A stretch of DNA of 64,000 nucleotides from a virus, in IMG/VR virus record IMGVR_UViG_3300030012_003086, positions 32,523 through 96,522 of that record. The stretch is one strand, 5' to 3'. The notes beneath the pieces were generated by a model. That model was given only the letters and a program-made list of their open reading frames with translations, was not told where the DNA came from and did no database searches. Made by a program: the position numbers and the translations under genes. Shown piece after piece: positions 5,898 through 39,717 of this stretch (position 1 is its first letter; each line of letters opens with the position of its first letter).

Positions 5898-6040
5898 AAT
5901 GTCCTATGTGCGGTAAAAGAGATTCATTGAGAATAATTAAAAAGAAAGACCTAGAAGCCTATACTCATTTGCATTCTTGGCAGAATAAAGCGGGAGTATT
6001 AGGTTGTATTTCTTGTGACTATGTGGAGGTATTTCGATGA
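5894..6040 (+). CDS. small Zn-ribbon protein (48 aa)
   Basis: MKCPMCG...GCISCDY; ATGA overlaps with both neighbours; not in the ORF track. Confidence 0.65.
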   Translation: MKCPMCGKRDSLRIIKKKDLEAYTHLHSWQNKAGVLGCISCDYVEVFR

Positions 6041-6408
6041 ATCAACATAGCCAAAGAAGGATAAAGGAATTAATCTATGAATTAGAAGAACCCTTTACTG
6101 CCCAAAATGTAAAGACTGCTCTAATAGAAAAACACGGCACTGCCTATACTCCTAGTAATATTAGTTTAGGCCAATTCCTAAATAGAATATGCATACGGAT
6201 AGGAAAACATCGTGGGAGATTTTTATACAAGGTGAAGACAATGAAAAAGAAAATAGTAAAAGTTGAAGTAACATATGATACAGAAGAAACATGGGAAACT
6301 ACTTTACAGGAAGTAAAGGAGTTATTTCAAATGATGAATAACATAAAGCGTAATGCTATCATTATTGATATTCAAGGTGATAAAGATGATGATGGACAAG
6401 ACGAATGA
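6037..6408 (+). CDS. hypothetical protein; N-half wHTH-like, possible internal start at 6241
   Basis: GGAGGT RBS; a second GGTGA RBS precedes the in-frame ATG at 6241. Confidence 0.65.
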   Translation: MNQHSQRRIKELIYELEEPFTAQNVKTALIEKHGTAYTPSNISLGQFLNRICIRIGKHRGRFLYKVKTMKKKIVKVEVTYDTEETWETTLQEVKELFQMMNNIKRNAIIIDIQGDKDDDGQDE

Positions 6409-6517
6409 GTTATTAGAGGAATTGCTGGCTATGATAGCAAAATCAAATAAGATATTGATGATGGTAAATATCGTAAACATAGCAACCATTTTAACAATAG
6501 TGACGGTGATACTATGA
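6386..6517 (+). CDS. small membrane protein (~43 aa)
   Basis: MDKTNELLEELLAMIAKSNKILMMVNIVNIATILTIVTVIL; GGTGA RBS; TGA overlaps the next ATG. Confidence 0.6.
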   Translation: MMMDKTNELLEELLAMIAKSNKILMMVNIVNIATILTIVTVIL

Positions 6518-6765
6518 ATAGTTATGAAATAAAAAAACTGAATGAAGAAATAAAGAGATTAACAATGGAAAACGAAGCCCTAGTGGAAAGAATACAGGGT
6601 CTTGAAAAAAGACTAAGATTACTTGAATCTGAATCTGAAGAAAGAGTTCCAGTATATTCTGTGGCAAAGGCAGTCCATGAAATACAGAACGACCTTAAAA
6701 AATTGCATCCTGAATTGAATTTTAATAATTCTATTTATGCACCCGATAAGGTGGGCGGAGTATGA
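6514..6765 (+). CDS. coiled-coil hypothetical protein
   Basis: 83 aa heptad-rich ORF, coupled to both neighbours. Confidence 0.7.
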   Translation: MNSYEIKKLNEEIKRLTMENEALVERIQGLEKRLRLLESESEERVPVYSVAKAVHEIQNDLKKLHPELNFNNSIYAPDKVGGV

Positions 6766-7652
6766 AAGTAGTTTATGGGCACACTGATTCAATCTATGTT
6801 CAGATTGATTCTGTTAAAAAGGCCCAAACTGCTATCAAGAAAATAGAAGAAAATGTTAGAGAACATTTTCCTAATATTTTGGGATTAGATAACCATCCCG
6901 TAGTTTTAGAGTTTGAAAAATACTTTTCAGCATTGGGTGTAGGTTTAACTAAAAATCGTAACGCAGGATTAGTATCTTGGGAAGATGGTAATTGGTTAGA
7001 TGAACCTAAGTTTACTATGACGGGTTTTACTGCTAAAAGGGTCAGTGAAACAATATTAGCAAAAGAAGTGCAAACAACTGTATTAAAAATGTGGGTTGAA
7101 AATAAATCACAAGCAGAAATCAACAAGTATTTGCATGATACCTACGATTCTGTTATCAAAGGAGAAATTAAAATTGATACTATTATCAAAAGAAGTCGCC
7201 TTAGAAAAAACAGGTTCATGGTAAAATGCCCTACTTGTAAAAAGAAATATCACTTGAAAGAGTGTCTTAAATTAAAACACAAAGCATGTAAGAAATGCGC
7301 TACCGATTCTTCTAAGTTTATTACTCTAGAAGGAAAGAAACCTTCTATTGGTTCCGGTATTGCAGGTGTGCTTTATGGTTGGGAAAAACAAAATATGGAG
7401 TTTGATGACTCTTACCTCTTCCTAAAAGTGAAAGCGAATGATTACTATACTAATCCGCTAACTCATGAAAGAAGAGAAGTGGAATATGTTTCCGGTGTTA
7501 CATTAAAAGATTTTAAAAATGTAAAGCCCGATTGGAAACACTATGCTCAACAGGTAATTGATAAAGCAAAACCCATTTACAATTCTATGGGATGGGATTT
7601 GAGCAGCATTAAAACGGGCAAAATACAAATGAGTTTGGAGGAATGGTTTTGA
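6762..7652 (+). CDS. polB: family B DNA polymerase, C-terminal subunit (motif C, thumb, Zn finger)
   Basis: Starts MKVVYGHTDS (motif C variant), LEFEK, KNRNAG, PDWKHY..QV; CPTC/CKKC insert; PIP-box-like tail QMSLEEWF. Confidence 0.92.
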   Translation: MKVVYGHTDSIYVQIDSVKKAQTAIKKIEENVREHFPNILGLDNHPVVLEFEKYFSALGVGLTKNRNAGLVSWEDGNWLDEPKFTMTGFTAKRVSETILAKEVQTTVLKMWVENKSQAEINKYLHDTYDSVIKGEIKIDTIIKRSRLRKNRFMVKCPTCKKKYHLKECLKLKHKACKKCATDSSKFITLEGKKPSIGSGIAGVLYGWEKQNMEFDDSYLFLKVKANDYYTNPLTHERREVEYVSGVTLKDFKNVKPDWKHYAQQVIDKAKPIYNSMGWDLSSIKTGKIQMSLEEWF

Positions 7653-12782: not shown

Positions 12783-13376
12783 ATGTCTGTATTAGCATTA
12801 GATATTGAAACAAAAAATATGTCGCATGAAATAGGCGGCTTTGGTAATACCCATATGTTTCAGGTATCAACAGTCGCTACATGGGATGGCAATAACGGAA
12901 CGGTTTATGTTGATGAGCCTGTTGATAACTTTGCTAAATCGGGCCATGTTATCAAAAGCCTTAGAGAATTAAAGTATGATTTAGACGACCATTTACAAAA
13001 AGGCGGAGTTTTGCTAGGACATAATATAGCAGCATTTGATTTACCTATTCTTAGGGATTCTTTAGATATTTATTGTATTAGAAAATACTTATCTGAAAAG
13101 AAATATATTGATACTAGCAAAATACTATTGAAGGAACATGGAGAAAGATTCCAACTTAAGAATTTAGTAAAATGCACTATGAATGATTTTAAGTTAATGG
13201 ATAGTGCTGATGCTCCTAAATTGTGGAAAATGGGTAAATTTGATGAAGTGGTGGATTATTGTATGAAAGATACACAGTTAGTATATGATTTGTGGAAATA
13301 TGGTAAAGATAATGGAATAGTAAAGGCTTTTTCGTTAGAACAATCAGAACATAAAGACTTGGAGGTGAATTGGTAA
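12783..13376 (+). CDS. DEDD / RNase H-like 3'-5' exonuclease
   Basis: LDIET, GHNIAAFDLP, YCMKDT. Confidence 0.85.
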   Translation: MSVLALDIETKNMSHEIGGFGNTHMFQVSTVATWDGNNGTVYVDEPVDNFAKSGHVIKSLRELKYDLDDHLQKGGVLLGHNIAAFDLPILRDSLDIYCIRKYLSEKKYIDTSKILLKEHGERFQLKNLVKCTMNDFKLMDSADAPKLWKMGKFDEVVDYCMKDTQLVYDLWKYGKDNGIVKAFSLEQSEHKDLEVNW

Positions 13377-13528
13377 TGACCGGTTGGGAATGGTTTGGCC
13401 TAATTGTTTTCGTTATTATTCTTCTTTTGTTGTTCTTTGCTGCTTTTGGTGGTAGTAATATCACTGATGAAAGCGTTGAAGATTACATGAGAAGACTAAT
13501 GCGAAATGATAAAGGCGGTCAAAGATGA
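13376..13528 (+). CDS. small single-pass membrane protein (50 aa)
   Basis: MTGWEWFGLIVFVIILLLLFFAAFGGS...; GGAGGTGA RBS; TAATG coupling. Confidence 0.7.
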   Translation: MTGWEWFGLIVFVIILLLLFFAAFGGSNITDESVEDYMRRLMRNDKGGQR

Positions 13529-24774: not shown

Positions 24775-26673
24775 TCACCTGCTCATGCTTGAAGATGTGC
24801 TTCTATTAATTTCTCTATTGATGATGTTCGCAACCTTTTGGGCTATCTTTCTTATTTCCCCGTCGCTAGTGCCACTTGCATTTACTGTTACGTTGATGAC
24901 ATTACCGCCGCCCCTATTCAGCATTTTTTGTGAATCTTTGTTACTATGGACTCTAGAACCCTTTGGAAGACTGACTATTTCCGGTCCCTTTTCTCCAACA
25001 ACCTGCATTGGAGTAGTTACAGGACCACCGTTAGCAAGGAAATCAACCTTATCTTCGAGGAATTTATACAAAGCATAAGCAATATATCCTGCTATTACTA
25101 TCCAATACAAAGGTGTTCCCTTTAACGCATCTGCTCGGCTCCATATGAACCATGCAAGAGCAAAGGTAGCAAGTATTCCTACTGCTTTTGCTAAATTTTT
25201 ACTCGATTTAGTTGCCCATTTAAATCCGGCAGTGAATAATTCTTTTGCTAAAGATATTACTAAACCAACTGTAACTACTAATAGAATACCAAGCGTTGCC
25301 GCTATTGTTCCTAAGAAACCTTTCAAAAAAGTCCCCGCAGCAAAAACAATTTCTTTTACGTCACCTTTTATTATTGCATTAATAAGTTCAGTAAAACCTT
25401 CATACATTTCCATTACCCGTTCTCCCAAGAAATCTCGAACGATTTCTAATATAGGATAAATGGCTTCATATGCATCTTCAAGATACGGCTTAATGAAATT
25501 AAATACTGCCATCGCTATACCTATGAATAGAGTAGCAAAAAAGATAAATTTCAAAGCATGGAGTGTAAATTTAGCAACTGAATACAATCCGTCCCCCACT
25601 GCTTTAAATCCTTCAGCAAAAATGTTCTTATGTATTTGTAACTGCTCAATTTGTTTTTCAGCATTATCTCTTACTTCATTAGCAGCCTCTTCATTTTTTA
25701 TTGCATAATCTAATTGATTTTCTAGTATTCTTCTTCTTTTTTGGAAATCTTCTTGGCTTTCTTGAACCGTAATTTCAAATGTTCTATTACTCTCAAGTTG
25801 CCTTTGCATTTCTTCTTCAAATCTATATGCATCAGTTAATTGCTTTTGCATCTCTTCCATTCTTTTATCAAACTTTTCTTGGCTTTCTTGCCCTGCTTTT
25901 TTTCCCTTTCTTCCGGGTTTTGTTCTTCGACCCTTTTTTCGTGCTTTTTCAAATTTTTCTTCCAATTCTTCTCTTGCTTTCAGTGCATCTTGATGTTGTT
26001 TATGGAAAACTTGCATTTCGGATGCGGCTCTTTGTTGTATTTCAATTAAATTCTGTGGGCCTTGTTCCTGTAATTCTTGTAATTTTTTTTCTTGCTGCAT
26101 TCTTTCCTCTGTTGCTGCCTTTGCTTGTTGAACAAGCCCGTCTTCTTGGTCCATCAATTCTTTTAATTCTTTTTTCTTTTGTCTTCTCATAAAGGCTTCT
26201 TCTCTAGTATAACCTAAAGTGGCTTTATATCCTCTAATTAAAGTAGTAAACATATTATTTTGAATTTCAGCATCTTCTCCTGACTTTCCTGAAACTGCAA
26301 GCATGGCTTGATTTACTGCTAAAATAGATGTTGAAAATTTATTTACTAATCGGAAAGCACCCGGAGGGAGAAAACCATATACAATTTTTCTAGCGGTTTT
26401 TGCTCTTAAGCCGAAAACTTTAGTTTCATCTGAGGTTGAAGTTAAAACATCATAAAACCCCTTCATTTTTTTACTAGCGAATTCAGTTCCATCAGCAGAT
26501 TCAATCGCTGCCTTAGTCTTTTTCTTTTCTGCTTTTTCACTTAATGTTTTAAGTTTAGTTTGGCGTTCCTCTAATTTATTGAGTTCATCCATCGCTTTAA
26601 TCTGCTTTTCAAGAGCAATAGTCAATTTGTTAATTGAATCCTCCATCTGTGCGATTTTACCCATAAACATCAC
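24775..26673 (-). CDS. tail tape measure protein
   Basis: Coiled coil plus hydrophobic helices, C-terminal LANGG...VVGEKGPE motif; follows the tail chaperone. Confidence 0.85.
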   Translation of the reverse strand: MMFMGKIAQMEDSINKLTIALEKQIKAMDELNKLEERQTKLKTLSEKAEKKKTKAAIESADGTEFASKKMKGFYDVLTSTSDETKVFGLRAKTARKIVYGFLPPGAFRLVNKFSTSILAVNQAMLAVSGKSGEDAEIQNNMFTTLIRGYKATLGYTREEAFMRRQKKKELKELMDQEDGLVQQAKAATEERMQQEKKLQELQEQGPQNLIEIQQRAASEMQVFHKQHQDALKAREELEEKFEKARKKGRRTKPGRKGKKAGQESQEKFDKRMEEMQKQLTDAYRFEEEMQRQLESNRTFEITVQESQEDFQKRRRILENQLDYAIKNEEAANEVRDNAEKQIEQLQIHKNIFAEGFKAVGDGLYSVAKFTLHALKFIFFATLFIGIAMAVFNFIKPYLEDAYEAIYPILEIVRDFLGERVMEMYEGFTELINAIIKGDVKEIVFAAGTFLKGFLGTIAATLGILLVVTVGLVISLAKELFTAGFKWATKSSKNLAKAVGILATFALAWFIWSRADALKGTPLYWIVIAGYIAYALYKFLEDKVDFLANGGPVTTPMQVVGEKGPEIVSLPKGSRVHSNKDSQKMLNRGGGNVINVTVNASGTSDGEIRKIAQKVANIINREINRSTSSSMSR

Positions 26674-27414: not shown

Positions 27415-29067
27415 TCACCCCTGTAAAATCCAATGTGTTTCCACTTTGCATAGGCTTAGGTTTCTAGGCATAACTGTTGTTTCAACAACAATTGGTCCTT
27501 TGTCTTCCTGTATTGGGAAATTATTAGCCGATATAAAGTAATCTGTAAAGTTTAGAGTAATTTTTTCTCCATTAGGCTTTGTAAATACTAACTCGATAGT
27601 TTGTGTTTGATTCTCATCATCACTTCTAAGAGCCTTATACAGTGCGTTGTCAGTAACATGACCTGTAAATTGAATCTCATATGTTCTTTGTGCTGGAAGA
27701 GAAACCTGCACTTCTTTAGATGCGACTCCTAAGAATCTTCTATCTTGTAAAGTATTATTCATTGTCAATGTCAAAGTATTTATCTTTAAGAAAGGTTGAC
27801 CTAATACCTTGAATGTTCCATCAGAAAAGAAGAATGGCTCTCTAAATTGCTGCGCTGAGTTAGCAGCACCGACTCCACCTTCAAAATTAAAGAACGCCTT
27901 TTCATCTGTTACACCTCTTCGAGCATCATACTTCTCATCTTCTGCTAATTGATGAACATTTCTAGTATTCAAACTCATAGTCATCTTAACTTCTTCATTT
28001 TCATTAGCAGTCATAGTTAGAGTATTAACTCGGCAACCTCTTGCTATTTGAACGAAGTTTAAATCTTCATCAACACTTCCATCGCTATTTGTTCTATAAA
28101 TATTAGTCCCTGTTAATTTAGAATGATTATATTCTAAAGCAAAAGAAGGTAACAGGTCACTGTTTTGTTCTTCAAAAGTATAAGTTATTGAATCTGTAAT
28201 AGAGGTTGTTCCCGAAGCCCTATTAACTAATTTTACATCTCCTATATCTGATGTAGTGATTTCTTGTGGAGAAATAGGTGGACAAAATTTACCATCAATT
28301 GCTCTTCTAAAAAATGGACCTGTATCAGCAAAACCCGCCAAATCTCTTACTCCGGCATTTTGTCCGTTGCCAGACGCATCGGTGCTTTCTACAAATAATT
28401 GGTTATTATCTCCCGCATTAGCAACATCAAATCTATGTGAAGCGGTTGAAAGAGCAGTGCTAGCATCTGCTATTTTGCAGTTTATGTTTGTGCATTTACC
28501 TAAGAAATAATATAACCATGCACCGTGATTTGCTACTATGTTTAAATCAGCAGTGCCAAAATTAGTAACTCCTTTGTATTGATAAGTATAGTTTCTTGAA
28601 CCGCCCAGACTTAGATTCATTTGTTTCATTTCGGGTTCAACAGTAGGAAATGTTGCACTTTCAAGAATACCTAGCCATTGGTCAGAAAGTAGGTTTTTTA
28701 CATCAGTATCGACGCTATCAAAAGGTGCAGGAACAGGTGCGCCATAAGACTTGATAACGAAGTAATCTGTTGAGACAGGTGTAACTTCATCTGTAATAGT
28801 TACGCTATCAGCATCATTGGCTTTAATTATATGTGAAGAAGAAAGGGTTCCACCGGTAGCATATCTTTCTAGAGTGCATCCTATATACAGATTGTTTACT
28901 AATTTATAATTAGCAGTAAATCCTGTTGCTGCTTGAATAACATTTACAGTTTCAGCACCCGTAAATGCACTTCCTCCGTTTTGAACTCCTACTCCTAAAT
29001 ACAAATCACATTCCGGTATGAATGTTAAACTTGTTCCTGCTCCCAAAAATATCTCTTCATTTGCCAT
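27415..29067 (-). CDS. major tail (tube) protein
   Basis: LPSFALE...GCRVNTLTM...LTLTMNNTL...RTYEIQF tail-tube pattern; position. Confidence 0.75.
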   Translation of the reverse strand: MANEEIFLGAGTSLTFIPECDLYLGVGVQNGGSAFTGAETVNVIQAATGFTANYKLVNNLYIGCTLERYATGGTLSSSHIIKANDADSVTITDEVTPVSTDYFVIKSYGAPVPAPFDSVDTDVKNLLSDQWLGILESATFPTVEPEMKQMNLSLGGSRNYTYQYKGVTNFGTADLNIVANHGAWLYYFLGKCTNINCKIADASTALSTASHRFDVANAGDNNQLFVESTDASGNGQNAGVRDLAGFADTGPFFRRAIDGKFCPPISPQEITTSDIGDVKLVNRASGTTSITDSITYTFEEQNSDLLPSFALEYNHSKLTGTNIYRTNSDGSVDEDLNFVQIARGCRVNTLTMTANENEEVKMTMSLNTRNVHQLAEDEKYDARRGVTDEKAFFNFEGGVGAANSAQQFREPFFFSDGTFKVLGQPFLKINTLTLTMNNTLQDRRFLGVASKEVQVSLPAQRTYEIQFTGHVTDNALYKALRSDDENQTQTIELVFTKPNGEKITLNFTDYFISANNFPIQEDKGPIVVETTVMPRNLSLCKVETHWILQG

Positions 29068-29781: not shown

Positions 29782-31101
29782 CTAACCGAGGAAATATACT
29801 AAGTCTCCCTTCCCCTTGAGAATATCCATAGCCTCTTGTTTTAAAATATCATACTTTTCTTTAGTAGTAATATTAGCACCTGTTTCAGCAATTAATACAC
29901 TTTGGTCATCATGCCTTAGTATTTCTGCTGCTGCTAATTTAGTTGCTGCTTCATGTATAGCAGCAGGAACTCTCCCATTACCTGCTAGATAAGTAACTAT
30001 TACTGAATTCTTTTCATGGTAAGGATAATCTCTTAAGAAAAATATTCTTCCTTCTGATTTAATAGTCCAATAAGAACCTAGTCTTCTTAGGTCTTCTTTA
30101 TCAGTAAAGTTAGTTAAATCACAAACTGTTGGTATTTTATCATCAGTTGTAAAAGTCAAATTAGAACTACTAAAGGAACCACTTGTAGTAGCATTACTTA
30201 GAACGACTGTAGTCGAATCAGTAATAGAAGTAATTGTGGAACCACTTACAATGTTACTGATTCCGCTTACCGTCATACCTACGGCTAATTTAGACGAATC
30301 TGCAACGGTAAGATTAACTGAATTATTACCGGAACATGATTGTTTTATGGTTGCTTTAAGAACACATTCTGCCCCGTCATCACCGGAAAGTAGGGATGAA
30401 ATGAGGACTCTCTTGCCGTTTGCTCTGTCCTTTGCAGCATAGAAAAAATCAGAAATTGACAAATTATTCGGTGTTGATGACACTGATTTCAGAGCCGTAG
30501 CACCTGTAAAATTAGATGTGTTAGACGGAAATTGTTCATTAACTAGAGAAACTATTTCATCATTCGTAGTTTTAACGCCAAACGTATTACAGAATTCATC
30601 ATTTCCTAAACCCGAAATGTCATTCTCAGCAACCATTTCAAATGAATCTCCACTATTAGGTAATTCTAAAATTATAGAATTTAAATCTCTAAAGTTTTCT
30701 TGAAGCAATATCTTGGCCTGTGCTGATGCTAATTCTTCATATTCGCTACCTTGCCAAACTTGTAAAGATATTACTTTTCTCAGTCTTAGTTGAGATAGTT
30801 GAATAAAGCCAACATATCCTCCATAGTAAGAATGCATTGGTAATGTCTTAAATTGAAAATCATGAAATTCGTTCTTAGTAATAATAGGTCTAAAAGAACG
30901 CTTTACTTTATCGTCAATAAGTCCCTCGACTCTTTTGATAATTGCACCGACTTGTGCTAAAGTAGGATAAGTAGTGCTAGCAGTAAAAACAGGAACTTGT
31001 AATAGATTAGCGACTTCAGTTGCATTGGTATAGAATCCTCTTCCATCTGAATAACTAGGATTTATTTCTGTAAAATCACTTGGCGACACTGTTACTGACA
31101 T
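29782..31101 (-). CDS. head-tail adaptor (gp6/gp15-like) with inserted beta domains
   Basis: YTNATEVANLL at the N-terminus; VTYLAG..VPAAIHEAATKLAA at the C-terminus. Confidence 0.7.
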   Translation of the reverse strand: MSVTVSPSDFTEINPSYSDGRGFYTNATEVANLLQVPVFTASTTYPTLAQVGAIIKRVEGLIDDKVKRSFRPIITKNEFHDFQFKTLPMHSYYGGYVGFIQLSQLRLRKVISLQVWQGSEYEELASAQAKILLQENFRDLNSIILELPNSGDSFEMVAENDISGLGNDEFCNTFGVKTTNDEIVSLVNEQFPSNTSNFTGATALKSVSSTPNNLSISDFFYAAKDRANGKRVLISSLLSGDDGAECVLKATIKQSCSGNNSVNLTVADSSKLAVGMTVSGISNIVSGSTITSITDSTTVVLSNATTSGSFSSSNLTFTTDDKIPTVCDLTNFTDKEDLRRLGSYWTIKSEGRIFFLRDYPYHEKNSVIVTYLAGNGRVPAAIHEAATKLAAAEILRHDDQSVLIAETGANITTKEKYDILKQEAMDILKGKGDLVYFLG

Positions 31102-33143
31102 TATTCAAGTCCTCCTATTAGTCTCTTAATTTTTCTGATAACCTTTCTATATCCACCGATTGTTCTATTCATTTCCTTATTTCTTCTAGGCCTAAGTTGA
31201 ACTGAAGGTATTTCATACGCCTGCATAAGATAACCTTTAATCGAGACATTAGTATCTTTGAACGATTCATTTATTTCGTCTATTGGAACTTGTCCTGTTC
31301 GATAAGTTATTTTCCCAAACTCAGAAGTAATGTCTTCTCCTGTCTTTGCATCTAATACTTCTTTTACTCCTTCTCTTTTAATTCTAGCAATATCTTCTGC
31401 TTGTGTCTCTCGGTAAACTCTTTCATATTCCTGTTTTTCCTTTGGGGAGAGTTTATTGTATTCCTTATCAGTAATTTGCTTACCTTCTTTGTTTTTCCAA
31501 CCTTCGCTTACTTCATAAACATCTGCATCTTCATCTGTTATTCCTTGTTCAAATGCGTCTTTCATGCTAGAATATAACTCCTTAGTTTTGCCCTTTTTGA
31601 CTTTAAACGTGACATATACTCTTATTCCCATAACTCTGTTATATTCTTCAAATAAATCAGAATCTTTTGCTTCTTTCTTTACCATTTCAGTAATTCTTTT
31701 TACTAACTTTTCAATTTGGTCATCATTATCATATGACATAGAAATGGGAGTGCTTTCACCACCTTTTACTGTGTATTCGATTGGTTCATCAACTTCTTCC
31801 CATTTCTTAGTAATACTATTGTATTTATAATTTAATTTAGCCTTATTTTTTCCTTGCGCTACTTGTTCAAAAGCAGCAGCAATAAAACCATCAACAGGAT
31901 AAGATATGGTTGTTGCAGGTATTCCGACGGAAGCCTCATACTCTTCATAAGTTAGTTTTCTTTCAATTATTTTTCTTTTGTATTTTTCTTTTTCTCTATT
32001 AGATAATTTATCATAATCTTCATTACTAATTGTTATGTTTTTATTTTCTTTACTTATCCACATTGTTTCGTCTTCTTCCTGTTCATTAAGAACATCAGAA
32101 ACATCACTAATCTTTTTGTTTTCTGACTGTGCTCGTTTTTCTGCGTCGTCATATTCTTTAGAATATTTATCAAACATTTCTTTCATTCTTCTATTTTTTT
32201 CGCCTTCAGAAACCTTTTCTCTTTCTCCGGCCATTTGACCTAGTTTACCCATTTCAAAAACTTTAGTTTGGATTGTTCTTTTAGATAATTCATCATTCAA
32301 TTTTTCTATGAAATCTTCATCTAAACTGAGGTCATATCCCTCTAATGTATCTTCTAGCAAATCAAAAGATTGATTTTTAGCCACAGGCTTTACTACATTA
32401 CCTGACATATTAGACAATACAGATGCTCTTTTTTTGCTTATATCTTCTAATTCATCTGTCAGAGGTCTATCTGGCCCTAATTGATTTGGATAATCAATAA
32501 TTAAATGTGCTTTATCTTTCAGGTTTTTATCTGTCAAAACACTTGTTCCTGTATTTAGTTTACCTGTGGGTTCTCCGCCTCTTGTGGATTCTTCTAAAAC
32601 TAATTCATAATCAAACTTAGGAGAGCGAACTATTTTGTTAATTTCTTCTTCACTTAGTTTCTTTTCTAAGTTTTCTTCTTGACTTCTTAGATAATTTAAT
32701 CCCTTAAGTCTTCTAATAACTTCGGGTTTCATTAAATCCTTTAATTTTTTATTTTGAATATATTTCTTATTGGCTTCGTTTTCAACCTGAACATCCTTTG
32801 TTTCAAATACATCAACTACTTTGCCATCAACTTCTTTTGTTCCTGTTTTTGTTCTTTTAGAAGTTCTTCTTCTTTTGATAAAATTATTCCATCCGGGTGA
32901 TTTTTTTAGCCATTCTGATAATTCCTCATCAAGAACTTCGCCTATGACTTTTTTTAAAACTAAAGAAAATTCATCCATTTCCTCATCATCATCTTCCAAA
33001 GCATATTGAACTCCTAGAATTTTCCTATAAAAAGCATCATCATTTGGATTCATTAATGCGTTTCTAAATTCTGTTTTAAAATCGTCTTCGGTTGATTTGT
33101 CTTCAGTATCAACATAATTGTCTCCCCATAAAAAATCAACCAT
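31101..33143 (-). CDS. large charged hypothetical protein
   Basis: 680 aa, E/K-rich, one internal repeated motif. Confidence 0.8.
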   Translation of the reverse strand: MVDFLWGDNYVDTEDKSTEDDFKTEFRNALMNPNDDAFYRKILGVQYALEDDDEEMDEFSLVLKKVIGEVLDEELSEWLKKSPGWNNFIKRRRTSKRTKTGTKEVDGKVVDVFETKDVQVENEANKKYIQNKKLKDLMKPEVIRRLKGLNYLRSQEENLEKKLSEEEINKIVRSPKFDYELVLEESTRGGEPTGKLNTGTSVLTDKNLKDKAHLIIDYPNQLGPDRPLTDELEDISKKRASVLSNMSGNVVKPVAKNQSFDLLEDTLEGYDLSLDEDFIEKLNDELSKRTIQTKVFEMGKLGQMAGEREKVSEGEKNRRMKEMFDKYSKEYDDAEKRAQSENKKISDVSDVLNEQEEDETMWISKENKNITISNEDYDKLSNREKEKYKRKIIERKLTYEEYEASVGIPATTISYPVDGFIAAAFEQVAQGKNKAKLNYKYNSITKKWEEVDEPIEYTVKGGESTPISMSYDNDDQIEKLVKRITEMVKKEAKDSDLFEEYNRVMGIRVYVTFKVKKGKTKELYSSMKDAFEQGITDEDADVYEVSEGWKNKEGKQITDKEYNKLSPKEKQEYERVYRETQAEDIARIKREGVKEVLDAKTGEDITSEFGKITYRTGQVPIDEINESFKDTNVSIKGYLMQAYEIPSVQLRPRRNKEMNRTIGGYRKVIRKIKRLIGGLE

Positions 33144-33154
33144 TTAGGTTCACC

Positions 33155-33808
33155 TCACATCAACCATTTAGCCCATGCAGCACCCTTTTGTATTGCTGAA
33201 CCTAAACCTAAGCCTGCCTTTGGCGGCTCATAACTCATTTGTCCTGTTTGTGGGTCTATCCAATATGGCCTACCATATCCGTCTGTTCCATTAGGAGGAA
33301 TAGGATAACCTGTGCCATTATTCATAGCACCCTGCATTTGGTTATATTGTTGCGTATTACCTGTTACTCCTGCAATAGCAGCACCGGCGGTAATTTGTTG
33401 TGTTTGTCCTCCACCGAATCCTTGAGATTCTAGATATTGTTGCTTTGCCATCTTTCTTTGGTTTACTACTTCTGCATTGATAGCGGATTGAAGCAATCTT
33501 TGAATATCCAAATCAATATTTTCTTGAGTAATTCTTTCGTATTCTCTCATAGCATCAGCATCAATTTGTATTGAATTCCCTGTCATTGTAAATTTCAATT
33601 TACCTAGCATTTGGGAAACTACTCTCTCAATCACGTCTTCCATCAGTTTTTCCAAAGCAGTCAAGAAATGTTCTCCATGATACTGAAAGAATTCCTCAAC
33701 ATGGTTATCTTGTAATGATAACAAATTATTCATTGATTTGAATTGCTGGTCGCCTTGTGCTTGCACTGCTCCTAAAACAGTGCCATTACTTGTTCCTAAT
33801 AATCCCAT
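33155..33808 (-). CDS. hypothetical protein (coiled coil, Gln/Gly-rich, amphipathic C-terminus)
   Basis: 217 aa; ends GLGLGSAIQKGAAWAKWLM. Confidence 0.8.
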   Translation of the reverse strand: MGLLGTSNGTVLGAVQAQGDQQFKSMNNLLSLQDNHVEEFFQYHGEHFLTALEKLMEDVIERVVSQMLGKLKFTMTGNSIQIDADAMREYERITQENIDLDIQRLLQSAINAEVVNQRKMAKQQYLESQGFGGGQTQQITAGAAIAGVTGNTQQYNQMQGAMNNGTGYPIPPNGTDGYGRPYWIDPQTGQMSYEPPKAGLGLGSAIQKGAAWAKWLM

Positions 33809-33810
33809 AA

Positions 33811-34470
33811 TTATTCCTCTTTAGTTTCTTCTCTAGTGGGTATTTTTACCCCTTCATTAATCATTAAGTAATTTAGCCTATCAGTAAGTATGTTTATCTC
33901 ACCAACAATCTCAATTACTTCGTTAGTAGCACTCCTATTATCTCCTAATGAGGGTGGCTTTATTAAATAACCGCTTGCAGTAAGTGTTGCTATATTTTCT
34001 TTAGTCAAATGAGTCAAAGGACCACTTTTTAGAACCTTTGGCATCTTAGGAATATATTTAGCAAACTCTAAGCCATGCTTATCCGCAAGTATCGTTTGTT
34101 GTAGCATTTCTAATTGCATAAACATAGCAGCGTGTTTAGGGCAATATGTTCCTGCTAGTGGTCTACCTTTCACTACATTATCTAGTGGAATAGGAGGCCT
34201 TAATGAATCTCCGGGTTCCCATATATGATGAAAACCACAAACTACGCATCTATCTTTTAGATTAAATTTTTTACCGTATTTTAATCCCAAAAATTTCTTT
34301 GGTTCGGGCTTTAAAACGGCAACTAATTCTTTTAATTGTTTTTTAGGTTTAATTGCTACAAACTTGTATTCCATTATAGAACCGCTCGCTCTTGCTGCTC
34401 TTAATGGAGACAAGAATGCGGTCGGTAACATATTTGGATTCTGTCCTATAATATTTGGTTGTTGATACAT
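33811..34470 (-). CDS. Zn-finger-containing hypothetical protein
   Basis: CVVC...YCPKH. Confidence 0.75.
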   Translation of the reverse strand: MYQQPNIIGQNPNMLPTAFLSPLRAARASGSIMEYKFVAIKPKKQLKELVAVLKPEPKKFLGLKYGKKFNLKDRCVVCGFHHIWEPGDSLRPPIPLDNVVKGRPLAGTYCPKHAAMFMQLEMLQQTILADKHGLEFAKYIPKMPKVLKSGPLTHLTKENIATLTASGYLIKPPSLGDNRSATNEVIEIVGEINILTDRLNYLMINEGVKIPTREETKEE

Positions 34471-34761
34471 CTATCTCCCTCTTCTTCTAATTGATTGAAT
34501 AATATTTTTGCTTAACATTTTATCCCAAAATTTATCTGCTACGGGTAGTGTTCCATCAGCCTCTATGTCTCCGTCTTTTATTGAAAGTAAATACTTAACC
34601 ATTTCTTTTAGGTATTTTTCTCCTAATCCCTGTCTTTCTTCTGCATTATGACCAAAGCCCATAATTCCCCAATATCCAGCATAAAACGCATCTCCGGTTG
34701 CTTTACCATCTTTTGAATGCCAAGTGACTTCTAATTCTTCTTTGATAATATTAAACCACAT
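34471..34761 (-). CDS. WxxIIK-leader protein with GNAT-like fragment
   Basis: MWFNIIK leader; RQGLGEKYL and ADKFWDKM resemble GNAT motifs A/B. Confidence 0.6.
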   Translation of the reverse strand: MWFNIIKEELEVTWHSKDGKATGDAFYAGYWGIMGFGHNAEERQGLGEKYLKEMVKYLLSIKDGDIEADGTLPVADKFWDKMLSKNIIQSIRRRGR

Positions 34762-34766
34762 AATAA

Positions 34767-35435
34767 TCAATAATCCTTTATCATCGTCATTACGCCTCTA
34801 TATACCATTTCGGGTTCTGATTTTGCTGAAACTATATATTTGAAGCAAGGTATTCCTTTATCGTTTAATTGTCTCATTCCATACTTAAACGGTTCAAAAA
34901 TTTCATGTTTATCTATTGTTTGTCCTTCTTTTAGCGGGTATTTTTCTCCCCATATGTCATATTTATTTGCCCATATTCCTACTGCCATTGGATAATCTGA
35001 ATCTCTTTTTTTCCTATTAGTAGGCCAAATATTAGAACAGATTGTATCAACTAAAAATTTCCATGCTACTTGATGGTCTAAGTTAGAAGAATTATCTAAA
35101 TGCCTGTGGTCTATCATAAAAATCACATATTTTACTTTTCTTTTTTGCATGTCTTTAACCCATTCTTTCCAATAGATTGCTTCTCCACCAACATCTGCGC
35201 TTCTAACAGTATAGGAATCTCCGTCTATTTTAACATTTTTTCTTGAAGCCCTATGTAATCCTACTGTTCTTTCATTTATTTGAGGCACTTCGCCCCTTGT
35301 TCTTAACTGATTACTTAACGTTGTTTTGCCGACCATTGTTGCACCATACACACCGAAATTGATTGCATGAACCTTTCTATAAAAACTAATGAATGCTTCT
35401 CCTACTAAAATTGCAAAGCCTGTCATCATTGACAA
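34767..35435 (-). CDS. Arf/Ras-superfamily small GTPase
   Basis: G1 GATMVGKTT, G2 RTVG, G3 DVGGE, G4 NKYD, G5 SAK; hydrophobic/amphipathic N-terminal helix; likely TTG start after GGAGGT. Confidence 0.88.
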   Translation of the reverse strand: MSMMTGFAILVGEAFISFYRKVHAINFGVYGATMVGKTTLSNQLRTRGEVPQINERTVGLHRASRKNVKIDGDSYTVRSADVGGEAIYWKEWVKDMQKRKVKYVIFMIDHRHLDNSSNLDHQVAWKFLVDTICSNIWPTNRKKRDSDYPMAVGIWANKYDIWGEKYPLKEGQTIDKHEIFEPFKYGMRQLNDKGIPCFKYIVSAKSEPEMVYRGVMTMIKDY

Positions 35436-35437
35436 AA

Positions 35438-35653
35438 CTATACCTCCCAACTGTGCCAAAAGGTATCTAATATCCAACCTAGAATATTAATATCAAAAAC
35501 ACCCATAATGTTTCCAATAAAGAAAGAGAATATAGCGGCAAAAGTGCCCCAAAACCATGCTCTCATTTTTAAAAATAAAATATCTGCTGAATGCGCTCTT
35601 TGCTGATTATATGCATAATCAGAATCAGAAAAACCTAGAAAATCAGAAATCAT
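35438..35653 (-). CDS. small membrane protein
   Basis: 71 aa, hydrophobic C-half (WFWGTFAAIFSFFIGNIMGVF). Confidence 0.75.
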   Translation of the reverse strand: MISDFLGFSDSDYAYNQQRAHSADILFLKMRAWFWGTFAAIFSFFIGNIMGVFDINILGWILDTFWHSWEV

Positions 35654-35662
35654 TTAACCGCC

Positions 35663-36058
35663 TCACTGAAGAGTAGCGGCTAAAAATTCACTTCCAACAG
35701 TGTTATCATCAGTGGTTTCGATGTTAGAATACTGCTGGAAAGTCGTTCCACCATATTGCTTTGCGCTTTCTTGCATCTTTCTCAACTGTTGCTCATCTCT
35801 TGCTTTTCTTTCCCAATAGGCCGCAATTTTTCTATCAAGTAGCCACATCTCTATTTTATCATTTAGTGCCAAATCAAACAGTGCTTTCATTACCATAATA
35901 GCACCTATCGTTCCTAAACCAAATAATACAGAGTGTGCTAAAGGACCATATGGGAATCCTAAACCTATCTGTGCATAAACCATAACGTTAGCACCACTTA
36001 ATGCACCAACGAAAAGTATAGTCATAACTAATCTAGTATCTTGATTCAATGCAGGCAT
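35663..36058 (-). CDS. two-TM membrane protein with cytoplasmic coiled coil
   Basis: Two hydrophobic segments followed by a charged helix; GGTGA RBS. Confidence 0.8.
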   Translation of the reverse strand: MPALNQDTRLVMTILFVGALSGANVMVYAQIGLGFPYGPLAHSVLFGLGTIGAIMVMKALFDLALNDKIEMWLLDRKIAAYWERKARDEQQLRKMQESAKQYGGTTFQQYSNIETTDDNTVGSEFLAATLQ

Positions 36059-36068
36059 TTAATTCACC

Positions 36069-36356
36069 TCAAGCAAATTCGACGGAAACTGCTGCGCCTT
36101 CGTCTGCTCCACTACTAATGTCCAAATAAAGACCATTGGTTGCAATTACACCATGCATATCAAACTCGATGTTTTCGGTTTGACCTAGCGTAATTCTAAC
36201 CAATTCCTTACCCGATGCAGCCGAAGCATTATCCCATACTGACACTGTTGTTGGATTAATTCCTGTTAGTGAAGCATGTATTGAAATAAGTTTACACCTA
36301 TCACCGCTAATAGTCTGACTTGAAGTTAAAACTCCGCTACTTCTGCAACCCGACAT
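36069..36356 (-). CDS. small beta-rich virion (decoration/spike-like) protein
   Basis: VSVWDNASAASG...GVIATNGLY pattern; position after the capsid genes. Confidence 0.5.
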   Translation of the reverse strand: MSGCRSSGVLTSSQTISGDRCKLISIHASLTGINPTTVSVWDNASAASGKELVRITLGQTENIEFDMHGVIATNGLYLDISSGADEGAAVSVEFA

Positions 36357-36408
36357 ATGTTTCCACCATTCGACTTTAGGGATAACTCCCACTTAAACCT
36401 TATTGGGA

Positions 36409-36747
36409 TTATTCGGACTCTTCGGCCTTTTCAACTACCGGAGCAGTTGTTTTTTTGGCTTTAGATTTTCTAGTCTTCTTTGGTAAAAGAAGAGCACACA
36501 ATTCCTCATGAGTGGTAATATTAGTGCCTAATTCTTTAGAAAGCACTTCAAAAATCCCGATATCTAATTGCATCATTTCTTCTCTGTCTGATTCATCAAA
36601 AACAAAATTTAAGTTTTTGTCACTATATCGAACCAAAGCCCCAATTAATGATGGGAATGTAACGGGTTCGAGACTTGTTTTACTTAGCCTCAAACCCATT
36701 ACATTCAAAGAAAACGGAGATGCACTACTCAGTTTTACTTTAACCAA
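36409..36747 (-). CDS. hypothetical protein
   Basis: 112 aa in the capsid operon. Confidence 0.7.
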   Translation of the reverse strand: MVKVKLSSASPFSLNVMGLRLSKTSLEPVTFPSLIGALVRYSDKNLNFVFDESDREEMMQLDIGIFEVLSKELGTNITTHEELCALLLPKKTRKSKAKKTTAPVVEKAEESE

Positions 36748-36756
36748 TCAAATCCC

Positions 36757-37122
36757 TCAGATATTGCCGAACACTCTAACTCGGAATTGCATTCCACTGT
36801 GAGTCCCACCATCCGCTACTTCAGCAGGGGTCGCTTGTAACGCTTGAACCAATAACATTGTTACTGAATCTGCGCTAGTATAACTTCCATCTGTTCCTGA
36901 TATTACAAATGTCGGGTAAAACAATACATTACTTGTTCCCGTATGGGAAATTGAACTGATTGAATTTAGCCCAAATTTGCTTGCAGACATGACTACTCCG
37001 CTTGCATCGTATGTGGAAACATCAATTAGAGCATCAACCATATATTCATCACCATTTGCTCTAGGCTTAGTGAATCCCTTATGGTCGGCTAATAGAGTAA
37101 CCGTAAATACTTCTTCTGTCAA
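36757..37122 (-). CDS. probable capsid decoration / minor head protein
   Basis: Directly after the MCP; YDASG...FGL...RVRVFG pattern. Confidence 0.55.
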   Translation of the reverse strand: MTEEVFTVTLLADHKGFTKPRANGDEYMVDALIDVSTYDASGVVMSASKFGLNSISSISHTGTSNVLFYPTFVISGTDGSYTSADSVTMLLVQALQATPAEVADGGTHSGMQFRVRVFGNI

Positions 37123-37133
37123 GTTAAATCACC

Positions 37134-38489
37134 TCACAGAAGGTTTGTGACTTTACCTTGTCCTTTCCAATATGAGCAACCCAATTCACCAATTGTTCGG
37201 TAAAGAGCCTTGTTTCCGAGGGTTCCGACACCGAATGGGTTTCCGTTGCTAATACCATCCTCAAAGTATTGAGTTGGTTTCATAACAGATAGCCATAGAT
37301 GGTCTGTATCTAGGAATAACATATCGCTAATACAAGATGAATTTACACCTGTGGAAGCCATAGCAGCAACAGGAATTAGAGGAATATCGTAGTAAGTTGA
37401 TACTCTAAATCCTACTTCTTGACCTTTAACACCACGAACACCGTTTACGGTTGGAACAATTTCTTTTCTATCCATAAATCTCTCTTGTGCTTGTAGCAAA
37501 TCAGAGATAGTTTGTAGTGTATCATATCCTGTTAGAATAACCTTTGGTGAACCACCGGCAACACGAATTAGTCTTAGCATTTCATTAAGAACAGTTAGTG
37601 TTAGTTGGCGAGCATCTGCGCTAGCATAAGAATCACCAAAAGTAACCTGTGAATCTAGGAAAGAAGCAGCGTCACGGTTTGTTGAGAATAGATGACTCAA
37701 TTCATTCGCAGTTGCGCTTGATACTAGATTTGCGGTAGCCATAGCATCCAATTCAGCCTTTGAAGAAACAATCTTGTTTAGAGAAGTATAGTTTCTCTCA
37801 ATTGTATCAACAGTAACTGAACCGGAAACTGCTGAACCTGCTGCATAGAATTCTAGAGGCATAACTAGCATAGCATTCTGAACTTCAGCGTGGTGCTTAC
37901 CCATATCTTCACGCATTTGCGCTCTAATATCGCCAATTCCATCATCAATTTGTGCCATTTCCATAGCCAATTCGCTGAATTCAAATTGATGTGCAATAAT
38001 TTTAGGACTTGTGAACAATTGCTCATACTTTGGCGCAATAGAAGCCAAACCATCAGCAACAGTATCTAGACCTGCGTTCTCAGGAACACCACCAATAATA
38101 TCTGCTCTAGGAGAAGTTGAACCGAGATTTGCAGCATCTTTTGAACCTTCAACATCTAATGCTAGGAAATTACCACTACCACCAGCAGGTCTTTCTGACA
38201 ATACTCTCCAACCGCTAGAAGTATATGGCCTCTTAGAAATTACTGAAAGAGCATTACATTCACGGTTTAACATAGACCAAACTTTTTGTCCGTAAACTTG
38301 ATTGTATAATGCTCCTAGAGAAGAAGCAGCAGTAGTTCCACTACCGACTCCTAGAGAAACATCATGGCCTGTGTGAATACCTGCCACTGCACCAACCTGT
38401 TTTAGCAATTGGTTGTTTAGTCCCGCATTTGCGCCCATTCCGTAAGTATTAGCCTCTAAATCTGCAATTGTGTTAATATATCCACTCAT
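37134..38489 (-). CDS. HK97-fold major capsid protein
   Basis: 451 aa after the protease-scaffold; PKIIAHQFEFSE, PKVILTG, YDIPLIP, C-terminal GKVTNL. Confidence 0.88.
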   Translation of the reverse strand: MSGYINTIADLEANTYGMGANAGLNNQLLKQVGAVAGIHTGHDVSLGVGSGTTAASSLGALYNQVYGQKVWSMLNRECNALSVISKRPYTSSGWRVLSERPAGGSGNFLALDVEGSKDAANLGSTSPRADIIGGVPENAGLDTVADGLASIAPKYEQLFTSPKIIAHQFEFSELAMEMAQIDDGIGDIRAQMREDMGKHHAEVQNAMLVMPLEFYAAGSAVSGSVTVDTIERNYTSLNKIVSSKAELDAMATANLVSSATANELSHLFSTNRDAASFLDSQVTFGDSYASADARQLTLTVLNEMLRLIRVAGGSPKVILTGYDTLQTISDLLQAQERFMDRKEIVPTVNGVRGVKGQEVGFRVSTYYDIPLIPVAAMASTGVNSSCISDMLFLDTDHLWLSVMKPTQYFEDGISNGNPFGVGTLGNKALYRTIGELGCSYWKGQGKVTNLL

Positions 38490-38490
38490 C

Positions 38491-39717
38491 TTAAATTCCT
38501 CCTACCATCTTATGAATGTCATTCCAGTCCATTTCTGCAATTTCATCCAATGAAGGGAGTTTAATTTGAGACTCTTCTTGAGCCTTTAGAATAGTCTCTT
38601 TCTCAGCAGTTAGAGACTTTCTTAGTTGTGTAAATTCTTCCTTTAGGGAAGCAATTTCTGTCTTTGCATCGTAATTTGCTTTAGCGATTGCATTTGTTCT
38701 TGATGTAGTTTCAGCCTCAAATCTGGCTTCAAACTGCTTTTGAAGATTATCGTAAGCCAATTTTTCTAATTGTTCTTGACGGAATGCTTCGTAAGCCTTC
38801 TCAATGTTTCCTACTGACAAATCAAGTGTTTCTAATTCATTGTTGTTATATGCTTTAACAACAGGCAAATCAGAAGCCTTTGGATTTCCATTCTCAATAA
38901 CGACTCTATCCGCAGGTTCACCGATTTCAACACCAGCACCATCTAGAGTTGAAAGCAAAGCCTTTGCTTCTCTGTCTCTTTCTTCAGTGCCCATATCCAT
39001 CAATTCTTCTTCTTCTTCATCGGCTCTTTCCATGTTGTCCATGTATTCGCCCATGCCCTTTTCTTTTTCTTCAGGCATTTCTTTTGCATACATGCCTTTT
39101 TCATCTTCTTTTTCTTCTTCTTTTCTTAACATATTGACTTCCTCCATTAGAGTGTCCAATTCTGCTAGTGCTTTTTCTAGTTTACTCATTTTTTTTGCCT
39201 CCTTATCTTGCTTTAAAATATCAAATTTCGCTTCCGGGTTTATTCCTTTTTCACATATTGTTACTTCATGCAATTCTAGTTTGCTTATTTCATTGTAATC
39301 TCCTAACTCTGGGTGATTTTTCTTTACTTTATGTATCGCTTGCCCCCCAATGCTAAATGACCTCAATGAACCTTTTCTTATGCCTCGATTTATTTCTTTG
39401 GCTTTTTCTATATCATCCCTTAATTTAATCACTACAAAAAATCCTACATCATCAACTTCAGTTTTCCATAGTTTTCCGTTCTTATCTCGATATGATTTAA
39501 TTACCTCTCCGACTTGAACATTTGAATGGTTTGTCATTACATTCCTAAATTTGGGATTCTCCATGTATTTTTCGACTGCATCTTCTAATGCTTTGAGTGT
39601 AATTAAATCATTTTGCTTATCAACGATTTCGATGCTTGCATATCCTCCAATCATTAAATCGTCACTTTTGAGTATTCTGAAATCATCATTATGATTAGCC
39701 ATAATAGCAGATGCCAT
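38491..39717 (-). CDS. prohead protease fused to scaffold
   Basis: IGGYASIEIVDKQND, H(S)N..VG, SFSIGG, LHEVTICEKGINPEA followed by an acidic coiled-coil scaffold. Confidence 0.9.
   Translation of the reverse strand: MASAIMANHNDDFRILKSDDLMIGGYASIEIVDKQNDLITLKALEDAVEKYMENPKFRNVMTNHSNVQVGEVIKSYRDKNGKLWKTEVDDVGFFVVIKLRDDIEKAKEINRGIRKGSLRSFSIGGQAIHKVKKNHPELGDYNEISKLELHEVTICEKGINPEAKFDILKQDKEAKKMSKLEKALAELDTLMEEVNMLRKEEEKEDEKGMYAKEMPEEKEKGMGEYMDNMERADEEEEELMDMGTEERDREAKALLSTLDGAGVEIGEPADRVVIENGNPKASDLPVVKAYNNNELETLDLSVGNIEKAYEAFRQEQLEKLAYDNLQKQFEARFEAETTSRTNAIAKANYDAKTEIASLKEEFTQLRKSLTAEKETILKAQEESQIKLPSLDEIAEMDWNDIHKMVGGI

Follow-up and report, generated by a model that had tools for sequence, protein, structure and literature searches.

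The DNA analyzed here is the right-hand 64 kb (64,000 nucleotides, hereafter the window) of a complete 96.5-kb virus record, IMGVR_UViG_3300030012_003086 in IMG/VR. Because the relatives of this virus include Poseidoniales virus YSH_150918, we regard it as a magrovirus, that is, one of the tailed viruses of Marine Group II archaea (PMC5434244). According to our analysis, a gene for a small GTPase, located in the window at 34767..35435, is a core gene of the magroviruses, and by its sequence and modeled fold the encoded protein falls into the clade of Arf, Sar, SRbeta, Galpha and Rag as a very divergent member. The gene stands in a conserved cassette together with genes for two predicted membrane proteins, a helical protein and a protein whose Cys/His site is conserved. 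The release of virions is the role that we tentatively favor for this cassette.

The GTPase is a core gene of magroviruses

The first-pass annotation of this DNA, made from its letters alone, had recognized a GTPase gene with the motifs G1 to G5, and this identification stands. The motifs G1 (GATMVGKTT, residues 31–39), G2 (RTVG, 56–59), G3 (DVGGE, 81–85), G4 (NKYD, 157–160) and G5 (SAK, 203–205) are invariant in an alignment of 27 relatives with 69–97% identity, where the mean column identity is 78%. In switch II, D-V-G-G-E is followed by Y-W-K-E-W, and the motif I-D-H-R-H-L occurs after strand 4.

A metagenome protein collection contained 316 homologues of the GTPase, with a length of about 220 amino acids, and three scans recovered 475, 140 and 266 viral contigs carrying the gene; these numbers confirm that its conservation is far beyond chance. 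When 1.84 billion cluster representatives were searched with the profile, on the other side, only 79 clusters were returned at E ≤ 1e-3, and the window protein misses the Pfam threshold for Arf; the family is new and isolated. A tblastn search of the GenBank phage collection, from which near-identical records may be missing, gave no match. No fused or longer forms of the GTPase were found, which is weak evidence. One contig, IMGVR_UViG_3300021958_000021 (184,733 bp), contained two copies of the gene about 92 kb apart (67182–67847 and 159021–159677); with about twice the usual genome length, it may represent a concatemer, or else two related genomes joined together.

Further comparisons were based on 240 viral loci, all of them on IMG/VR contigs of up to ~100 kb, which were divided into three sets: clade 1 with 81–97% identity to the GTPase, clade 2 with ~60%, and clade 3 with ~30% (and a length of ~240 amino acids). 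The open reading frames (ORFs) of these loci were counted by iterated profile searches. G1 and NKxD were present in 240 of 240 loci. In a test anchored on the capsid gene, the GTPase was found in 24 of 27 virus records, including all five of those that were at least 90% complete, and in the three negative records the contig stops within 1.3 kb of the capsid gene, on its far side. When clades 1 and 2 are compared, 60–62% identity is retained by the GTPase and 56–62% by the capsid protein; the protease, the ligase and the remaining genes of the cassette are all less conserved than the GTPase. The GTPase is thus a core gene of the group.

A scan for the gene in one genome per species, covering 185,579 prokaryote species, revealed two loci only, both in a metagenome-assembled genome (MAG) labeled “Maricaulis sp.” The contigs in question, NZMJ01000024.1 and NZMJ01000101.1 (12 and 29 kb), carry magrovirus-type GTPases with 88% and 61% identity and are most likely mis-binned virus. 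In a maximum-likelihood tree built from viral, metagenomic and Chloroflexota rows, midpoint-rooted and without references from Arf, Sar, SRbeta, Galpha, Rag, ArvA or MglA, all viral clades clustered together (99/97) and were separate from the cell-encoded relatives (100/98). The tree points to a single viral lineage and says nothing of the donor.

The counter-case named in the first-pass annotation, a sporadic recent acquisition from the host, does not describe this gene, which is a core gene, belongs to a single viral group and has no close copy in the species genomes scanned other than the two probably mis-binned viral contigs. The broader idea that the ORF is a sporadic, recent capture of a GTPase from the host, or has a P-loop by chance, and serves no module might appeal to the sub-threshold Pfam scores that are all the single sequence obtains (MMR_HSR1 at 7e-4, Roc, Ras and SRPRB). 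We consider it hardly credible, and indeed refuted, in view of the number of homologues, the core status, the one viral group in the tree, the confinement of the family to so few of the 1.84 billion clusters and the mis-binned viral contigs as the only copies in species genomes.

The nearest cell-encoded relatives that we found are, on the basis of sequence, bacterial Arf-like proteins of Chloroflexota and not proteins of the host. One of these, P0195, which is encoded on a 572-kb contig, was reached by the profile search; its family occurs in genomes of Chloroflexota/Anaerolineae, carries the Pfam domain Arf and bears the NCBI name “ADP-ribosylation factor-like protein.” With such relatives, and with a sequence far from canonical Arf, the first suggestion that the viral GTPase bears on the origin of eukaryote-like small GTPases is weak.

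In the Chloroflexota loci we observed a conserved protein of ~215–245 amino acids encoded after the Arf-like gene in nine of 13 metagenome loci (L249, L263, L271 and L276, at ~5900–7460, among them). This protein has a faint match to Pfam GAP1-N2 (E 0.052). The Chloroflexota GTPase and this partner may represent a bacterial two-gene GTPase system.

Affiliation, catalytic position and N-terminal helix of the GTPase

The AlphaFold2 (AF2) model computed on the alignment (pLDDT 75.9, pTM 0.76) consists of a helix at residues 2–22 followed by a small-GTPase fold. Foldseek retrieved more than 500 GTPase chains from the PDB at E ≤ 1e-3, among which the families were not separable. In an exhaustive structural alignment (VIA-align), the highest scores were obtained for Arf6 (Z 16.7 and 16.5), LokiRagO, an Asgard RagA-like protein (16.1), and SRbeta (16.1); further scores were 15.5 for Sar1, 15.3 for Gs-alpha, 14.8 for Arl13B and ~14 for Rab and Ras. 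The best alignments span 160–176 residues, and the top ten all belong to the Arf/Rag/SRbeta/Sar/Galpha clade. Sequence profiles led to the same part of the superfamily. The profile of the viral family, compared with all PDB sequences, matched best the Asgard protein ArfR (8OUN, E 3.5e-11), then mini-Galpha and Arl3 (~6e-9), Arl1, 8OUM, SRbeta and Arf, with partial matches to the tandem-G-domain protein Der/EngA, and no Ras, Rab or Rho protein was among the top 60 matches. Distant relatives match Pfam Arf, SRPRB or Gtr1_RagA, some of them above threshold, as in the case of P0159, which passes Pfam Arf with 27.2 bits against a cut-off of 22.3. The window GTPase itself had no match to Pfam Arf (PF00025) at E ≤ 1.

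Based on the modeled fold and the profiles, we place the GTPase in the Arf/Sar/SRbeta/Galpha/Rag clade as a very divergent member. Since Galpha, SRbeta and RagA-like proteins lie within 1–2 Z units of Arf6, these data support the clade and not the strict Arf family, which has been defined by its helix and by the interswitch switch (10.1101/2024.02.28.582541). We have not filed the protein under the Arf family because the Pfam Arf threshold was not reached, G5 is S-A-K and the catalytic Gln is not conserved. The original label, Arf/Ras-like, is supported in the sense of an Arf-like clade.

The Glu in place of the catalytic Gln, which the first-pass annotation had pointed out, is indeed present; it is not peculiar to this gene. 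In clade 1 it is fixed (80 of 80 loci; 119 of 120 among the homologues listed), in clade 2 the position is Q in 42 loci and E in 38, and in clade 3 it is Q, E, D or T. Glu is also invariant at this position in 12 aligned Chloroflexota relatives. Because the residue varies among E, Q, D and T, the position is not under selection for Gln. This suggests that GTP hydrolysis by the protein may be slow or may be completed by a partner.

Over residues 2–19, the predicted N-terminal helix has a mean hydrophobicity of 0.61 and a moment of 0.19; Glu13 within it is invariant in the alignment of 27 sequences, and basic residues come after the helix. The helix had been described as hydrophobic and amphipathic. 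The former holds; in clade 1, the low moment speaks against the latter. In sequence, the helix looks more like an SRbeta-type anchor than like the amphipathic helix of Arf.

The conserved cassette and its surroundings in the genome

The cassette comprises genes for a protein with two transmembrane (TM) helices, a protein with one TM helix, the GTPase, a Cys/His protein and a Q/G-rich helical protein, in an order that is kept in the three clades; the members in the window are called here TM131, TM71, the GTPase, Zn219 and cc217 (Table 1). The neighbors are thus conserved along with the GTPase, as the proposal of a gene module implied, down to ~30% GTPase identity. The surroundings are not conserved to the same extent: the capsid gene lies at most 2.6 kb upstream in 71 of 73 loci of clade 1 and in 69 of 69 of clade 2, as against 0 of 61 in clade 3, and in the two clade-3 loci examined the neighbors include genes for helix-turn-helix/Zn-ribbon proteins and for proteins with domains of unknown function, with no recognizable head genes. 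The persistence of the downstream genes and of the upstream TM layout while the surroundings change is the strongest evidence that the genes of the cassette work together.

In TM131, TM helices are predicted at about residues 10–28 and 43–61 (hydropathy peaks 1.88 and 1.85), followed by a charged, helical C-terminal tail. TM71 has a predicted TM helix at about residues 34–58 (hydropathy peak 1.75) and a Trp-rich C-terminus. The GTPase gene starts with TTG at 35435 (N-terminus M-S-M-M-T-G-F), a correction to the first reading; a gap of 2 nt separates it from the TM71 stop codon (TAG, 35438–35440), and its Shine-Dalgarno-like motif, GGGAGGT, lies within the 3′ end of TM71. The coupling of the GTPase to a two-TM and a small TM protein, which had been claimed earlier, is upheld by the predicted helices, the short gap and this ribosome-binding site motif. 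A homologue of TM131 occurs within 1.2 kb upstream of the GTPase in 76 of 78 loci of clade 1 and in all 76 of clade 2, and TM71 is upstream in 78/78 and 76/76, respectively. In clade 3, a TM ORF of ~185 amino acids with one or two TM helices takes the place of TM131, and a single-TM ORF of ~82 amino acids that of TM71, each in 66 of 76 loci. TM131 had no Pfam, PHROG or PADLOC family, and its Atlas matches were viral hypothetical clusters only.

Downstream of the GTPase, Zn219 is characterized by C75, G79, C110 and H113, which are invariant across the three clades, and by C78, which is usually present; the Zn-finger protein noticed after the GTPase is thereby confirmed as a conserved component. 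Its gene follows the GTPase directly in 64 of 65 (clade 1), 69 of 70 (clade 2) and 79 of 80 loci (clade 3). The AF2 model of Zn219 was poor (pLDDT 63.5), with a best fold match of Z 5.5; the PDB profile search was empty, Atlas scores did not exceed 0.82, and there was no Pfam family match. A complex prediction of the GTPase, GTP, Mg and Zn219 gave a score of 0.00, which speaks neither for nor against binding; the idea of GAP- or GEF-like contacts, raised in the first-pass annotation, gained no support from it and met no counter-evidence.

The last gene of the cassette, cc217, is present downstream of Zn219 in every locus counted (65/65, 70/70 and 80/80 in clades 1, 2 and 3). The protein carries the motif M-G-x-(F/L) at its N-terminus; its helical core of ~120 amino acids is conserved, with an invariant N97 and a near-invariant E96, and there are Q/G/M-rich low-complexity stretches. 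Of the coiled-coil protein with an amphipathic tail that had been described here, the helical core was recovered, and the C-terminal tail was found to be hydrophobic, with small residues. The search of the PDB with the cc217 profile found nothing, and the PADLOC defense models matched no protein of the cassette. Two candidate assignments were rejected: a virion structural protein, on account of a PHROG match (E 8e-4) in only one of 18 family members, and a WW-like motif, which is sub-threshold, limited to clades 1–2 and absent from clade 3.

Between the GTPase and Zn219, the window contains an inserted, variable ORF, g99, which overlaps the GTPase stop codon by 4 nt. Homologues of g99 occur in nine of 240 loci, and it has no family match in Pfam, PHROG or PADLOC. 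The GTPase and Zn genes of most relatives are ~10–24 nt apart, with occasional inserts of up to 685 nt; this junction looks like an insertion hot spot. In clade 3, a two-TM ORF of ~82–88 amino acids directly follows the helical protein in all four loci inspected (e.g., L200:10576-10824 and L163:10378-10638). Six genes may thus make up the clade-3 cassette; in the window, nothing corresponds to this ORF at the same position.

Table 1. Positions of the cassette genes and of neighboring late genes in the window.
Feature	Position	Strand	Remarks
Prohead protease	38491-39717	-	Upstream of the cassette
Major capsid protein	37134-38489	-	Pfam SU10_MCP; upstream of the cassette
TM131 (131 aa)	35663..36058	-	First cassette gene; two predicted TM helices
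TM71 (71 aa)	35438..35653	-	One predicted TM helix
Small GTPase (222 aa)	34767..35435	-	N-terminal helix and G domain with G1-G5
g99 (99 aa)	34471..34770	-	Inserted ORF, variable, outside the conserved cassette
Zn219 (219 aa)	33811..34470	-	Conserved Cys/His site, then helices
cc217 (217 aa)	33155..33808	-	Helical, Q/G-rich
Tail tube gene	27415-29067	-	Downstream of the cassette; two further genes separate it from the 439-aa gene
Late gene block	29782..39717	-	From the protease through the 439-aa gene; 14 co-oriented genes

All cassette genes lie on the minus strand, at the coordinates given in the first-pass annotation. The order of transcription is protease, capsid, three small genes, TM131, TM71, GTPase, g99, Zn219, cc217, a gene for a 680-aa acidic/basic protein and a gene for a 439-aa protein. 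The cluster had been described as lying between capsid and adaptor genes; the capsid gene is indeed upstream, and the label “adaptor” for 29782-31101 has no Pfam match behind it. From the protease to the 439-aa gene, the intergenic gaps range from −4 to 16 nt, and a GAGG-type motif precedes most genes. Terminator-like matches in the block were at chance level (10 found versus 6.7 ± 3.2 expected). It is a reasonable inference that the block, with the cassette and the capsid genes, is co-transcribed, and the gene packing suggests that the cassette is made late, together with the capsid proteins.

Several other features of the window deserve mention. A 52-aa ORF at 13370-13528 (+), at the junction of the plus-strand replication genes and the minus-strand late genes, has one very hydrophobic TM helix (hydropathy 3.04) and represents another possible membrane-active small protein. 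The gene for a family B DNA polymerase is split into 4245-5897 and 6762-7652 (+), which correspond to positions 35–193 and 222–372 of Pfam DNA_pol_B, and a 123-aa ORF (6037-6408) lies between the two parts; this agrees with the split polymerase of magrovirus group B1 (PMC5434244). Downstream of the tail tube gene, a 632-aa protein (24775-26673, minus strand) with hydrophobic segments at about residues 366, 457 and 494 has no Pfam match and may be tape-measure-like.

Possible role of the cassette and comparison with known systems

The output of the cassette that we favor, while granting it somewhat less than an even chance, is a timed disruption or remodeling of the host membrane for the release of virions. 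By its N-terminal helix, with the basic residues that follow, the GTPase would be attached to the host membrane on the cytoplasmic side, next to the two small membrane proteins whose genes immediately precede its own. The GTPase would cycle between GTP and GDP states, and in one nucleotide state it would recruit or release Zn219 and cc217. The timed disruption or remodeling of the membrane would then let the finished virions out, with TM131 and its charged tail as a putative holin-like protein and the GTPase as the gate or timer. A lytic virus of a host enclosed only by an S-layer needs at least a membrane lesion. We also count for this reading that no machinery for egress is known from tailed viruses of archaea (PMC10791045) and that ArvA provides a precedent for GTPase-driven vesicle budding in Haloferax, a euryarchaeon (PMC10927574).

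A number of points weigh against the release of virions as the role of the cassette. Head and neck genes surround the cassette, and this position fits a role in assembly equally well, and the small TM ORF at 13370-13528 means that the cassette is not the sole possible membrane actor. TM131 and TM71 match no holin family in Pfam, PHROG or Atlas, and we know of no lysis system of a phage or an archaeal virus that includes a small GTPase. The upstream TM proteins of clade 3 are not demonstrable homologues of TM131 and TM71, with hhalign probabilities below 7%; position and topology alone agree. Finally, the N-terminal helix is less hydrophobic in clades 2 and 3; a permanent anchor is consequently not certain, and the helix may be reversible and interfacial. 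As for the missing endolysin, no murein or pseudomurein wall is known to us in Poseidoniales, and the argument for egress from its absence is weak because a wall-less host may need none. It is less likely than not that the cassette is the missing egress machine itself, in which a GTP-switched remodeling of the Arf type would replace the logic of holin and endolysin.

Three other roles have to be weighed against release. The cassette could organize assembly or packaging at the membrane, offering a site for the procapsid, neck, tail or DNA packaging with the nucleotide state as a checkpoint. Its position in clades 1–2, in a tightly packed block between the capsid and the neck/tail genes, would agree with this, as would a GTPase as conserved as the capsid protein. 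We nevertheless find such a role fairly unlikely, since no capsid gene was found within 2.6 kb upstream of the clade-3 cassette (none of 61 loci) and the neighbors in two loci include no recognizable head genes; besides, a membrane site for head assembly is not a known need of tailed viruses, and the hint of a virion structural protein for cc217 is confined to one of its 18 family members. Alternatively, an Arf/SRbeta-like switch might serve another manipulation of the host membrane, such as superinfection exclusion, receptor masking, the formation of vesicles or the takeover of a cellular process. The affiliation of the GTPase and its membrane helix are compatible with this, and ArvA offers a precedent for vesiculation in Euryarchaeota (PMC10927574). 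However, core status and capsid-like conservation are unusual for accessory genes, an early takeover is hard to reconcile with a location among late structural genes, and no PADLOC family was matched; we regard this explanation as unlikely.

Entry proteins carried in the virion are the third case: the TM proteins and their partners, packaged in the particle, would form or control a channel for genome delivery. The head genes of tailed phages often include genes for ejection proteins that act on membranes, and the cassette adjoins the capsid gene in clades 1 and 2. However, a GTP-dependent switch would be hard to power within a virion, and no structural homologue was found for Zn219 or cc217, which makes this role very unlikely in our view.

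The release of magrovirus virions is of broader interest. Their hosts rank among the most abundant microbes of the surface ocean (PMC5434244), and for this reason magrovirus release bears on marine carbon turnover. A core viral Arf-like switch tied to membrane proteins constitutes a concrete, testable candidate for egress, and it adds viruses of prokaryotes to the known carriers of Arf-like GTPases. Seen alongside ArvA and the relatives in Chloroflexota, it suggests that Arf-like switches tethered to membranes may be an old prokaryotic tool, found not only in Asgard archaea and eukaryotes. If the egress reading were true, Arf-like membrane mechanics would operate in a non-Asgard prokaryotic virus-host pair.

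The magrovirus literature that we searched and a review of archaeal tailed viruses mention no GTPase; this coverage is incomplete, and an earlier description is possible. A full-text search combining Marine Group II viruses and GTPases gave nothing relevant. Several known systems can be compared with the cassette. Among them, phage holins resemble TM131, by a loose criterion, in small size, two TM helices, a charged C-terminal tail and location in a late block. TM131 differs in having no holin family match and no endolysin partner and in its coupling to a GTPase; to our knowledge, no holin system is coupled to a GTPase.

The viral GTPase shares with the Arf family the D-x-G-G-[Q/E] motif with the conserved switch II Trp, T-V-G in switch I and a helix before strand 1. 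It differs in lacking the Trp before D-x-G-G, in having Glu for Gln in clade 1 and a helix of low moment, in the signatures I-D-H-R and N-K-x-D-x-W, and in an insert of ~20 amino acids before G4. The G5 motif of Arf is C-A-T, whereas that of the viral GTPase is S-A-K. With SRbeta, the common feature is a hydrophobic segment at the N-terminus that tethers an Arf-like G domain. The resemblance extends to the fold (Z 16.1 for 2fh5_B and 14.8 for 7obq_v), to the profile match (E 7e-8), whose alignment reaches into the N-terminal region, and to sub-threshold Pfam SRPRB matches in the window GTPase and its relatives. The setting is different: the viral protein is encoded in a late operon, with a Zn protein and small TM proteins as its partners. 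A partner resembling SRalpha/SRX was not seen, though no search was aimed at one.

A further comparison is with Haloferax volcanii, where the small GTPase ArvA, with an N-terminal helix, controls vesicle formation together with ArvB (OapB, SepF-like) and the Zn-ribbon protein ArvC (PMC10927574). In outline, the cassette of the virus is similar to the ArvA-ArvB-ArvC (OapA/B/C) system, since both combine a GTPase that has a membrane helix with a Zn-binding protein. Nevertheless, a six-frame search of the whole 96.5-kb genome gave no match to OapB (PF09846), while the Haloferax and Methanosarcina controls were positive; Zn219 matches no Pfam family, that of OapC included, and two TM proteins are added. 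We consider the relation to be an analogy of the “works like” kind and not membership in the same system.

The Chloroflexota family of P0195 is connected with the viral GTPase family by an hhalign probability of 97.8% (E 6.8e-13 over 181 columns) and by D-V-G-G-E, I-D-H, N-K-x-D-x-W and an N-terminal hydrophobic segment. The differences are an identity of ~22%, a grouping of its own in the tree (100/98), a location on bacterial contigs that reach several Mb in length and a partner of ~215–245 amino acids in place of the TM pair and the Zn protein. Ras-superfamily GTPases associated with viruses or mobile elements have also been recorded elsewhere: mimivirus encodes a Rab (PDB 5xc5; fold Z 14.2) that is close to cellular Rab, and Arf-like genes are located on a mobile-like region of Atabeyarchaeia, an Asgard group (PMC11529989). 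Whereas these proteins remain near cellular Rab and Arf, the magrovirus GTPase represents an isolated family, a core gene and a part of a fixed membrane cassette.

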